Origin: a virus
Taxonomy: Duplodnaviria > Heunggongvirae > Uroviricota > Caudoviricetes
Reading direction: 5' to 3' (one strand)
Length of the DNA stretch: 8,847 bases
Virus record (IMG/VR): IMGVR_UViG_2534681993_000021
Span: 1 to 8,847 of that record
Made by a program: the position numbers and the translations under genes. The notes under the pieces are model-generated. The model did not search any database and was not told the origin of the DNA. It saw only the letters and a list, made by a program, of their open reading frames with translations. Positions 4,221 through 6,996 of the stretch are shown in pieces. Position 1 is the stretch's first letter. Each line of letters starts with the position of its first letter.

Positions 4221-6512
4221 TTAAAAATCAGCCTGACTCGGGATCAGTTTTTGCCAGATAGCTGAAACGTATTTTGCCTGGTAACGGGCGTCATCAAGTG
4301 CATTGTGGCGCTCACCTTCGAATGGGATAGCTGTTCTGGCATCGAAGTCTATGGCTTTCCCTAGCTCAACGATTGTGCGTACATCGCGATCGTTGTGGTA
4401 GTGCCAGGGGCAGGGGATCCCCTGCCGTTCGTATGAACGGCGTAAAATCACGTTGTCGAAGTTGGCTCCATTTCCCCAGACCTGAACAAAAAATTCACCG
4501 GAGTTTTCGGCGATAAATTCCCGCAATTGCAGTAGTGCATCATCTAACGGGATTTCATCGGTCAGAATGGCAGACTGCGCTTCACGTGATTGCTTCAGCC
4601 ACCATTTAATGACGTCACGATCAATAACTCCGCCAGCAGTATCCAGATCGATGGTCTTGCTAAATTCCGGTCCCATATCTCCGGTTTGTGGATCGAAAAA
4701 TATTGCGCCTATTGAGATAATCGCGGCATTGGGATTTTTTCCCATGGTTTCAATGTCGATCATCAGATGAATCCCCGCTCTGCTGGTGGATGTGAGATTG
4801 TGATGACCATTCACCTTAATTAAGGGATCTGCCGCCTCGCCAGTTTCACTATCGCTGGCGTGATGCTGATTGCCGCCAGTGTTCTCCTTGTGTGGATGTT
4901 CAGCGCCTTCCATTTCCTCCGGATCATTCTCCTGAGCTTCAACCTGATTCTCTTCATCGAATGTTTCCTGGTATGTTGCGTTGCCCATGACAGCGCCACA
5001 ATCGGGGCAGTTGCCGCCACCGCTCTGACCGCAGGCGGTGCAGACTTTTTCCGGTTCCTGTTGCACTACTGGTTCGGATTGTTTCGTTTCTGGCTCGTTT
5101 TGTAACGCATTTGGGCTGTTTTGTTCCGCTTTCTGGTCGTTCTGTTCCGTTTCTTGCTGGTTCTGATTCACTGAATCGCGGGTTTCAATCTCCTTCACCC
5201 ATTTCGGATCATTCGGGTCGCTAATCCCTGCAACAAATTCACCACGTGATACAGCAAGCAACTTATCGGCGTCAGGCTGGCTGATATTGGCTGCCTGCAT
5301 AATTTTGTTTACTTCGTCAGCGGTAACTTTTACCGGCTCCGGTTGTGCGATCGTGTCAGATGCACCAGTATTTTGTTGTGAACCTGAGTATGTACCGTTT
5401 TTGCGGGCAAAATATTCTTCTTTCGTGATTTCAGTAGCCCCTGCAGCCAGCGCCTTATTCAGACCAGAAAGTTTGTTTGCACGACCGTATTTTTCGCCAT
5501 CCTTGTCGCTGAAGAGGAAGTAGAACGGCCCCTCACGCTCTACAGATGATTCGACTTCCACTTTGCATTCGGTTTTTTCGTTGTCCTGAATTGCCGTTTC
5601 CACTGCATCAGTTTCTGGTACTGGCGACGAGAGAGTATCAGTTGCGCTCTGATTTCTTCCTTCATCTTCAAACACGCCCTTTGTAGTCAGGTATTCAGTA
5701 ATGTATTTGTTCAGTGCCACAGGGTCTTTGTGAATGTCGATCGGACGTTCACGGACAAGGCCAAAAATAGTCTGGCGGCTGTAGCGAAGCGCATCAGGTT
5801 GTTTGCGCATTGATGCGGAGATGCGCTTCCAGTCTTCGCGATCTCTGGCGATAACTTCATTTTTAGCCCAGCGAAGGATGCTGCCGTCAATGTTTCCGGC
5901 ATCCGCATCACCAGGCCAGAGATAGTAGGCCAGCTCCCTGTCCAGGGTTTTCCATGTCTGCTTGTATTCGCGATGAATGGCGGCAGTTACAGGAGGGATT
6001 TTTTCTGCTGGGTTTTCAGTGTGCTGTCGGTTGGCTTTGGCGCGGGCAAGATCAACAACAGACGTGTATTTTCCAGTCTCTTTGCGCTCTGCGTCCTGCC
6101 GTTTTTTCCAGTTACGTAATTCAGCCTGAATTTCGGGCCATTTGGTACCCGGCTTACATTTGTGTTTAACCCATCCGATAGCGAACAGTTTGCGTTCCGG
6201 ATACATAGCGTTAATTTCAGGCGTTTTCATCAGTGCTTCAACGATATGTCCGTCAAAGGTAGCCACGTCTTCTTGCAGTAATTCCTGCGCGTCAATCGCC
6301 ATATCAACGGTGATGTTTTCACATGTACCGAACTTAACCAGGACCGCGTTCTGTACTTCAAGGGACAGCTTGTCAAAATTGACGTTAATAGGATCGGATT
6401 CTGGTTCGACCGGAATAAAGGAAGCGGATTCCTCATCCCAGCGGTTTTCCTGCATATATTCGGTATCCCAGGAGTCGATAGCAGGGCGGGGCATTCCAGC
6501 GTTTTTCTGCAT
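4221..6512 (-). CDS. Large early-left protein with C-terminal DEDDh (DnaQ-like) 3'-5' exonuclease domain; likely exodeoxyribonuclease VIII (RecE) family N-terminal region
   Basis: The ORF track gives 819 aa from 6680. Exo motifs: DIE (D642, E644; nt 4749-4757), GANFD (D742), HNALDD (H792, D797). Zinc ribbon C547-x2-C550-x7-C558-x2-C561 (nt 4998-5042) sits in an acidic Q/N/E-rich linker. The first ~56 codons overlap the upstream gene and are Cys/Trp-rich, so I place the start at ATG 6510-6512; ATG 6453-6455 is an alternative. Confidence 0.8.
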   Translation of the reverse strand: [763 protein letters not shown]

Positions 6513-6996
6513 CCCAGTCTTTCTCAAGGCCTGATACCATGAAGAAACCGTTAGTGTTGCCATCAAATAATTCTGTTTCCAAATTTTTAAGCAATGCCTG
6601 ATGGACTCTTGCCAGGTATTCCGCCGGAATTTCGCCACGAATTCTGATGAGATTGTCATAAACAAACATGTTCCCCGCATATGGCGATTTTTCTTTCTTG
6701 TTTTTTAAACCAGCATCATGAGCAAACTGATCAATTTCTTCTTCCGTTGGTTTCGTATTGATGTTTTGCGCTGTCGTTTCTGCAATTTTATTTGCCACAC
6801 TCTCTGAGTCGTGTTTATTTATAGACGCACAGAAATACAATCCGGTAAACGCATCGCGCACATTACGAGCCATATTATCAGTGTCTTTTTTCGTTACCGA
6901 TTCCAATTCAAGTTCGTTCAGACGATGACGAAGTGTGTGTGCTGCAATCTCCTGGATTGAAGGAGGTAAATCTTTAAATTCCATCGTCAACCTCAT
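6433..6996 (-). CDS. Hypothetical early-left protein (183-187 aa)
   Basis: Protein-like composition throughout. The first ATG (6994-6996) overlaps the upstream stop by 1 nt (TGATG). The second ATG (6982-6984) has GAGG 6 nt upstream. No family recognised. The 3' end overlaps the exonuclease ORF in another frame. Confidence 0.6.
   Translation of the reverse strand: MRLTMEFKDLPPSIQEIAAHTLRHRLNELELESVTKKDTDNMARNVRDAFTGLYFCASINKHDSESVANKIAETTAQNINTKPTEEEIDQFAHDAGLKNKKEKSPYAGNMFVYDNLIRIRGEIPAEYLARVHQALLKNLETELFDGNTNGFFMVSGLEKDWDAEKRWNAPPCYRLLGYRIYAGKPLG

Follow-up and report, generated by a model that had tools for sequence, protein, structure and literature searches.

What kind of enzyme does a lambdoid prophage encode when the place that the Rac prophage gives to recE-recT is taken by one large open reading frame (ORF) with a different nuclease at its C-terminus? 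The question is raised by a stretch of 8,847 nucleotides from a tailed virus (Caudoviricetes; IMG/VR record IMGVR_UViG_2534681993_000021, positions 1 to 8,847), hereafter the window, which is the whole of the draft contig AJVW01000030.1 from assembly GCA_000264015.1. An uninterrupted 819-codon ORF runs on the minus strand from 6680 to 4221, and an earlier note, made from the sequence alone, had described it as a large early protein with a zinc ribbon and a DEDDh 3'-5' exonuclease instead of a RecE-type nuclease. Our analysis indicates that the gene probably encodes a mosaic member of the RecE family, one that combines a YdfE_N domain and the RecE middle, linker, and zinc knuckle with a DEDDh domain, and that the product would serve as an early-lytic, stand-alone 3'-5' exonuclease, most likely on DNA. 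The genome context of the exonuclease ORF is a lambdoid early-left operon, and the gene occupies the position of recE-recT in Rac, in agreement with the earlier placement in a slot for lambdoid recombination functions.

The C-terminal domain (ORF aa 638-809, window 4254..4769; all parts of the gene given here lie on the minus strand) was matched by PF16473, the Rv2179c-like 3'-5' exoribonuclease domain, with an E value of 1.8e-66; the score of 223.7 bits compares with a cut-off of 27, and the alignment takes in positions 2-177 of the 177 in the profile. In the PHROGs database the C-terminal region belongs to phrog_255 (E=1e-78), which is also the assignment of DexA in the phage T4 record. Both results put the C-terminus inside the DEDD superfamily. 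The DnaQ-like residues that the earlier note had picked out, D642, E644, D742, H792, and D797, were invariant in a MAFFT alignment with T4 DexA and six stand-alone enterobacterial homologues, and they align with D7, E9, D119, H186, and D191 of DexA; all five catalytic residues of that enzyme thus have a counterpart. The catalytic pattern is complete, with D-x-E in Exo I, D in Exo II, and H-x4-D in Exo III. The catalytic residues listed in the DexA structure paper are D7, 'E12', D119, D191, and H186 (PMC12153337), and we read 'E12' as E9 because the DexA sequence in our alignment has a glycine at position 12. Judged by its sequence, the protein is of a clear biochemical class, namely a DEDDh (DnaQ-like) exonuclease of the Rv2179c-like/DexA subfamily. 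The polarity of the DnaQ superfamily is 3'-5'.

The name of the Pfam family invites a different view of the substrate. The family is defined by Rv2179c of Mycobacterium tuberculosis, some RefSeq copies of the gene are named '3'-5' exoribonuclease domain-containing protein', and defence against RNA phages is reported for DEDDh enzymes that carry auxiliary domains (PMC13344964). On this view the protein would resemble Rv2179c or the ISG20-like TONDOs and be a 3'-5' exoribonuclease that attacks RNA 3' ends, for example those of small RNAs, of RNA-phage genomes, or of transcripts from host or phage. We regard this as improbable. The sole solved structure matched in a search of the Protein Data Bank (PDB) was that of the DNA exonuclease T4 DexA (8KEL/8KEN), with E=6e-6 for the protein alone and E=1.4e-15 (8kel) for a domain-family profile, whereas the structure of Rv2179c gave no match at E<=1 in the sequence and profile searches. 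In addition, the PHROG is that of DexA, and the TONDOs are described as ISG20 homologues, while RNase_T (PF00929) gave only a weak additional match in the C-terminal domain.

The likeness to DexA, and to its Escherichia coli homologue EcD, for which the label 'HREX' is used, lies in the shared DEDDh subfamily (PF16473, phrog_255) and in the catalytic residues. The profile match to the DexA structure lends indirect support to a predicted RNase H-like fold in which the five residues surround two metal ions. The setting of the domain differs from that of DexA: T4 is a virulent phage, whereas here the phage is temperate and the domain is fused to a scaffold of ~630 aa. The domain is 27% identical to DexA and lacks the DexA surface insertions. 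D90 of DexA, the residue that forms the tetramer and whose loss would mark the HREX/EcD type, aligns with D714 in the MAFFT alignment, with A715 adjacent, such that a shift of one residue alters the result. A second group of relatives consists of stand-alone genes of ~185-190 aa in enterobacterial prophages, annotated as '3'-5' exonuclease' (e.g., P0102, Salmonella), which are 57-89% identical to the C-terminal domain and use the same slot directly upstream of xis-int. Unlike the gene in the window, they have no RecE/YdfE scaffold and begin with their own start codon (MN(H/N)LMIDLETMG).

The remainder of the ORF was divided into domains with the help of an AlphaFold2 (AF2) model and its per-residue confidence (predicted local distance difference test, pLDDT). 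The remaining part of a YdfE_N-type domain, mostly helical, spans ORF aa 62-206 (6063..6497). It is followed by a second helical domain that is common to RecE (ORF aa 232-341, 5658..5987; model residues 171-280, pLDDT 83-98), by a small beta-hairpin/helix domain (ORF aa 382-431, 5388..5537; model residues 321-370, pLDDT 92-97), and by a recE-derived linker (ORF aa 470-620, 4821..5273) that is acidic, Gln-rich, and largely disordered, with low pLDDT save around a Cys4 zinc knuckle. The knuckle, C547-x2-C550-x7-C558-x2-C561 (4998..5042, pLDDT ~73), accounts for the zinc ribbon of the earlier note and is also found in the RecE proteins of K-12, where it reads CNACGQTGGDNCPDC, and of Rac-SA53; its match to the DZR family was weak (E=0.15). 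We considered the knuckle as a hallmark of the family and rejected it, as it is present in only 7 of the 59 long family representatives and is better described as an optional linker element.

The resemblance to RecE lies in this middle region. The NCBIfam model PRK09709, an equivalog for exodeoxyribonuclease VIII, matched ORF aa 242-621 (E=6e-85), and a BLASTP comparison of aa 279-686 of the native protein described below (ORF aa 275-682) with aa 294-650 of K-12 RecE gave 38% identity. The identity to Rac-SA53 RecE rises to 74% over 151 aa, a stretch that takes in the Cys4 knuckle and the central segment which the earlier note had likened to RecE. That likeness holds, but the note had placed the segment in the N-terminal region of RecE, and it corresponds instead to the RecE middle and linker (K-12 aa ~294-590). 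In nucleotide sequence, the stretch for ORF aa 470-620 is 76-81% identical to recE of both K-12 and Rac-SA53, and this identity stops at K-12 RecE aa ~590, which is where the C-terminal nuclease region of RecE starts. The RecE-type nuclease domain (PDB 3H4R) is thus the part at which the homology gives out, and a Pfam search of the ORF found no match to PF12684 or any other PD-(D/E)XK / DUF3799 domain. Both results bear out the earlier statement that a DEDDh domain stands in for the RecE-type nuclease. The Pfam family Exonuc_VIII (PF06630), which the note had named for a check and which models RecE aa 1-200, gave no match in the ORF at E<=1.

Phage records nonetheless call the gene exonuclease VIII, the recE position in the operon is occupied, and the middle of the protein is matched by PRK09709, which could indicate a genuine RecE that drives RecET-type annealing recombination. 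We consider that highly improbable. PRK09709 gives 286 bits where its cut-off demands 1269, the alignment being limited to model positions 271-602 of 877, and neither an Exonuc_VIII domain nor a PD-(D/E)XK/DUF3799 nuclease is present. No RecT annealase gene lies next to the exonuclease gene, with xis and int following instead in the window, in the related loci L001 and L003, and in phage Tritos. The predicted polarity is furthermore opposite to that of RecE, and a 3'-5' DEDDh enzyme would destroy the 3' tails that an annealase needs. With the equivalog score, nuclease domain, PF06630, and RecT all speaking against RecE membership, a RecET-like recombinase was rejected. What the gene shares with Rac RecE is the central helical region, the acidic linker with its Cys4 knuckle, and the position in the operon. 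As a separate observation, the annotation 'exodeoxyribonuclease VIII / ds DNA exonuclease' has been propagated through phage records (OV696610.1 of Tritos, PV340562.1, ON470580.1) for proteins without the RecE nuclease domain.

The gene is not an oddity. By homology and synteny it is the intact orthologue of ydfE (b1577), a pseudogene in the Qin prophage of K-12. The K-12 ydfE fragment is 84% identical to native aa 1-255, and the two loci share dicB and ydfD upstream, int downstream, and an integration site at rspB. The K-12 order is dicA-ydfA-ydfB-ydfC-dicF-dicB-ydfD-ydfE-IS2E-intQ, adjoining rspB; the Shiga toxin-producing E. coli (STEC) prophage in the complete genome L003 lies likewise at rspB. 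The synteny dicB-ydfD-ydfE-(xis)-int was seen in L001, L003, Tritos, and K-12, while dicB and ydfD are deleted in the window. In K-12, IS2E cuts ydfE short after some 255-306 codons, and the fragment lacks a nuclease domain, whereas complete genomes carry a full-length STEC allele of 823 aa. The copy in the window is truncated at the opposite end from that of K-12, having lost its 5' end.

The gene is widespread and already catalogued. Tritos carries the same gene at 87.5% nucleotide identity with identical synteny, and it is one of several functional phages with the gene in the same place (Tritos, mEp460_ev081, HannyBb, Evi, and PPompW phages). Of 5,426 complete E. coli genomes, 4,069 (~75%) contain DNA of the DEDDh domain, with up to 7 copies each. 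The gene is among the commonest E. coli prophage genes, annotated as 'exonuclease' and represented in Pfam (YdfE_N, YdfE_C) and in PHROGs; the YdfE_N label (PF27430) is found on its relatives. Its position as the last gene of the early-left operon before xis-int is conserved. A literature search found no functional study of ydfE.

The ORF in the window is an altered version of this gene. From aa 62 to its end at aa 819, the ORF shows 100% identity to aa 66-823 of WP_000048585.1 (823 aa, RefSeq 'exonuclease'), whereas codons 1-61 read the gene upstream out of frame. The retained part of the exonuclease gene (native codons 66-823 and the stop) therefore covers 4221..6497, and the non-native start covers 6498..6680, where the DNA aligns to the gene for WP_000394548.1. 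A blastn comparison with L003 placed window 2533-6508 on L003 3001-6976 and window 6492-8847 on L003 8555-10910; colinearity with L001 reaches the same window position, 6508. About 1.6 kb (L003 6977-8554) that is present in all related complete genomes is thus absent from the window, and the junction, at about 6492-6499 (6492..6499 with CAT/CCAG), shows a microhomology of 3-7 bp. The DNA that was lost comprises exonuclease codons 1-65, the DUF1482 (ydfD lysis-protein) gene, dicB, and the 3' end of the WP_000394548.1 gene. The lost stretch also spans the intergenic region that carries dicF in Qin and Tritos. The earlier note was right that the reading frame from 4221 to 6680 is uninterrupted, but the predicted 819-aa protein is not native: it is an artefact of the deletion on this contig, its first 61 residues coming from the upstream gene out of frame, and the native protein has 823 aa.

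The upstream gene was truncated at its 3' end by the same event. Its remaining part (6433-6984, minus strand) encodes aa 1-164 of a 212-aa protein followed by 19 frame-shifted residues; the product, called on the contig as 183 aa, is 99% identical to WP_000394548.1 over 165 aa. The intact gene lies at L003 8409-9047, and the native 212-aa protein, which is conserved, had no match in Pfam or PADLOC. The exonuclease gene as called on AJVW01000030.1 (4221..6455) starts at M76 of the ORF and encodes 744 aa, for which the precomputed Pfam annotation lists YdfE_C (PF27432) and the Rv2179c-like domain. The allele on this contig, which lacks its promoter-proximal neighbours, its start codon, and ~65-79 N-terminal residues, is probably impaired or poorly expressed, because part of the most constrained domain (see below) and the native translation start are gone.

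It could also be argued that this copy is a functionless, decaying remnant, or that the deletion arose only in assembly. The copy has lost its start codon together with ~65 codons at the 5' end and the genes upstream, and the junction is contiguous in 0 of the 5,426 complete E. coli genomes. The sequence comes from a draft contig of 8.8 kb, and K-12 exemplifies decay of the locus. Several points run the other way. The other 758 codons are 100% identical to the intact allele, which means that any inactivation would be recent, and the truncated upstream ORF reaches its stop codon 20 nt after the in-frame ATG of M76, which makes coupled translation possible. As for an artefact, a microhomology of merely 3-7 bp is unlike a repeat collapse, and the contig is recorded in two samples. 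We hold this explanation to be a plausible one, though somewhat less probable than its opposite, and it applies to this copy only.

For the family as a whole, the joining of a RecE-like scaffold to a DEDDh domain is one of several combinations. When 1.84 billion proteins were searched exhaustively with the non-catalytic region (ORF aa 62-625), just 208 representatives matched at E<=0.001, and these form a mosaic. The N-termini are either YdfE_N-type or Exonuc_VIII-type, and the C-termini are DEDDh domains, RecE-type PD-(D/E)XK/DUF3799 nucleases, a phrog_2489/7838 'exonuclease' type without a Pfam match, or a phrog_26058 type. PF06630 is combined with the DEDDh domain in three relatives, P0130, P0139, and P0264. 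The first of these (L013 5001-7418), from a Rac-like prophage with sieB, kilR, and ydaE, is 99.7% identical to K-12 RecE over its first 300 aa, ends in a DEDDh domain, and is not accompanied by recT; it has the appearance of a true RecE that underwent a recent swap. The company that the gene keeps follows its C-terminus. In each of the three DEDDh-type relatives examined, P0130, P0264, and P0139, it is the last gene before xis/int and no annealase is present. RecT lies directly downstream of P0186, which is of the PD-(D/E)XK type, as in Rac, and a Sipho_Gp157 gene comes after a phrog_2489-type relative. As noted above for the stand-alone relatives, the DEDDh domain also occurs unfused: Salmonella prophages have it as a separate gene of 189 aa immediately ahead of xis-int. 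The simplest history, as we infer it from these arrangements, would be an exchange of modules at the boundary between RecE linker and nuclease, by which '[RecE nuclease]-recT-...-xis-int' became '[DEDDh]-xis-int'. Six relatives (P0126, P0129, P0145, P0165, P0169, and P0198, L018 4001-6211), among them one with a Sipho_Gp157 gene behind it, combine the YdfE_N/RecE-like scaffold with a C-terminal region that has no Pfam match and is of the phrog_7838 or phrog_26058 type. These scaffold relatives may be the 'RecE-2 proteins lacking a nuclease domain' that are mentioned in PMC12315714.

Is the fusion maintained, or is it debris of such exchanges? Ratios of nonsynonymous to synonymous substitution rates (dN/dS) were calculated by the Nei-Gojobori method for four regions in three pairwise comparisons of the STEC, Tritos, and mEp460 alleles. 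The values were 0.09-0.13 for the N-terminal domain, 0.29-0.34 for the middle, 0.25-0.48 for the linker, and 0.17-0.27 for the DEDDh domain. Purifying selection thus acts on all parts, which argues that the fusion is a maintained protein and not debris.

Our preferred reading, a mosaic RecE-family exonuclease that works alone in early lytic growth, can be laid out as follows. The YdfE/RecE scaffold protein would be made from the early leftward transcript during lytic growth. Its DEDDh domain would remove nucleotides from 3' ends by a Mg2+-dependent two-metal mechanism, and the substrate would most likely be DNA because the closest characterised relative, DexA, is a DNA exonuclease. The enzyme is expected to act alone, and not as a RecET-type single-strand-annealing recombinase, because its predicted polarity is opposite to that of RecE and no RecT is encoded next to it; with a polarity opposite to RecE and lambda Exo, it would not generate 3' tails for single-strand annealing. 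A specific role can be proposed only tentatively: the exonuclease may trim 3' tails on linear phage or cellular DNA, which would suit lambdoid phages that have neither Gam nor an annealase and depend on host RecBCD and Chi.

Phages of such a kind have been described. According to a study in Genome Res 2025 (PMC12315714), DnaQ-like 3'-5' nucleases occur in lambdoid early-left Rec modules, and a 'Tritos' class combines a nuclease with many Chi sites and has no annealase and no anti-RecBCD function. The RecE-scaffold/DEDDh chimera of the Tritos-type module is neither explicitly described nor functionally examined in the available text of that study. We searched the window for Chi sites (GCTGGTGG) and found 2 on the plus strand (2276-2283 and 4782-4789) and 0 on the other, against a calculated expectation of ~0.13 per strand in 8.8 kb. 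Two Chi sites on the same strand fit the Chi-rich, Gam-less lambdoid class of PMC12315714. One of the two falls within the exonuclease gene.

Five points weigh against this reading. The substrate could be RNA, the Pfam family being named after an exoribonuclease. The single-sequence AF2 model of the C-terminal domain has a pLDDT of 36, and the active-site geometry is taken from the alignment alone. Module exchange could have left the fusion as a by-product that is simply tolerated, although the dN/dS values argue otherwise. PMC12315714 states that 3'-5' exonucleases usually inhibit homologous recombination, and because of this a RecBCD-assisting role is speculative. Finally, the stand-alone E. 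coli homologue EcD acts in anti-T4 defence (PMC12153337), which points to a different role.

The last of these points leads to the idea of a prophage exclusion or defence nuclease of the 'HREX' type, in which the DexA-like domain would digest the hypermodified (5-hydroxymethylcytosine, 5hmC) DNA of T-even phages and spare unmodified host and prophage DNA, with the RecE-like part as an accessory or targeting module. The precedent is EcD, a stand-alone DexA homologue of E. coli that digests T4 DNA and protects cells against T4; DexA homologues are reported to be most frequent in Escherichia and absent from K-12 (PMC12153337). That absence fits the ydfE pseudogene in K-12 and the presence of the domain in 4,069 of 5,426 genomes. 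Accessory genes typically lie, as this gene does, beside int at the end of a prophage, and the catalytic residues are conserved. EcD is, however, a different protein, its primers giving MIDTET... and ...TIPETYD. When the EcD (HAK9828821.1) primers were searched for in the genome contigs, the 23-mer had no match and the 17-mer had 99 unrelated chance matches. The residues proposed to read 5hmC are not clearly conserved either: DexA W152 aligns with H762 and D169 with F779, in loops where the alignment is uncertain and W760 and D778 are close by. The gene belongs to an early-left operon that is under repression, and it has no promoter-like site to itself: when the native locus was scanned for promoters and terminators, the sites did not outnumber those in shuffled sequence, and the DNA just 5' of the gene contained none. 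PADLOC gave a weak generic DEDDh match and no defence-family match beyond it. On balance we think a defence nuclease of this type unlikely. The earlier note had left an anti-defence role open, for which the generic PADLOC matches offer no support; the published case for the stand-alone homologue would, by analogy, point in the opposite direction, to defence (PMC12153337).

A more general possibility concerns the N-terminal ~600 aa that the family has in common. A scaffold that carries at least four C-terminal ends, among them two nucleases of opposite polarity, and that occurs with and without an annealase would be expected to recognise one and the same target throughout, which might be a host factor, the replisome, or DNA ends. 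The RecE/YdfE N-terminal region might thus be a delivery scaffold that is indifferent to the nuclease attached, and the DEDDh version might perhaps be an exclusion or anti-defence nuclease rather than a recombination enzyme. We offer this as a long shot; if true, the swappable C-terminal domain would decide the outcome.

The rest of the window fits an early-left region with its flanks. Beyond the exonuclease and the truncated gene upstream, a cI-type repressor is encoded at 7315-7722 on the minus strand, and cro/dicC (7806-8036) and ydaT (8020-8571) on the plus strand. Directly 3' of the exonuclease gene is an excisionase (DUF1233) gene at 3900-4151 on the minus strand (Pfam E=1.6e-31 and RefSeq annotation), followed on the same strand by a tyrosine integrase gene at 2585-3880 (Pfam Phage_integrase and Arm-DNA-bind_2, and RefSeq annotation) and a DinI-like gene at 2165-2407. 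The same integrase borders chromosomal rspB in strain FWSEC0002. At 808-1794 on the plus strand is nleC, which encodes a type III effector (Peptidase_M85). The nleC gene and ORFs for tail-fibre C-termini adjoin the DinI-like gene and the integrase, and the nleC/integrase junction could reflect either tandem prophages or the cargo end of one element against the int end of the next. An Rfam scan of the window found no RNA family.

These results do not define a new kind of system, and their value is chiefly corrective: 'RecE' annotations within the YdfE/RecE scaffold family should not be taken to imply RecET-type recombination. The gene also provides a handle on the role of the large non-catalytic part of RecE, as purifying selection keeps the same scaffold here with a nuclease of opposite predicted polarity and no annealase. 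It likewise provides a handle on the role of the lone nuclease in Chi-rich lambdoid phages that rely on host RecBCD, which might instead be that of a widespread exclusion nuclease, as proposed for EcD.

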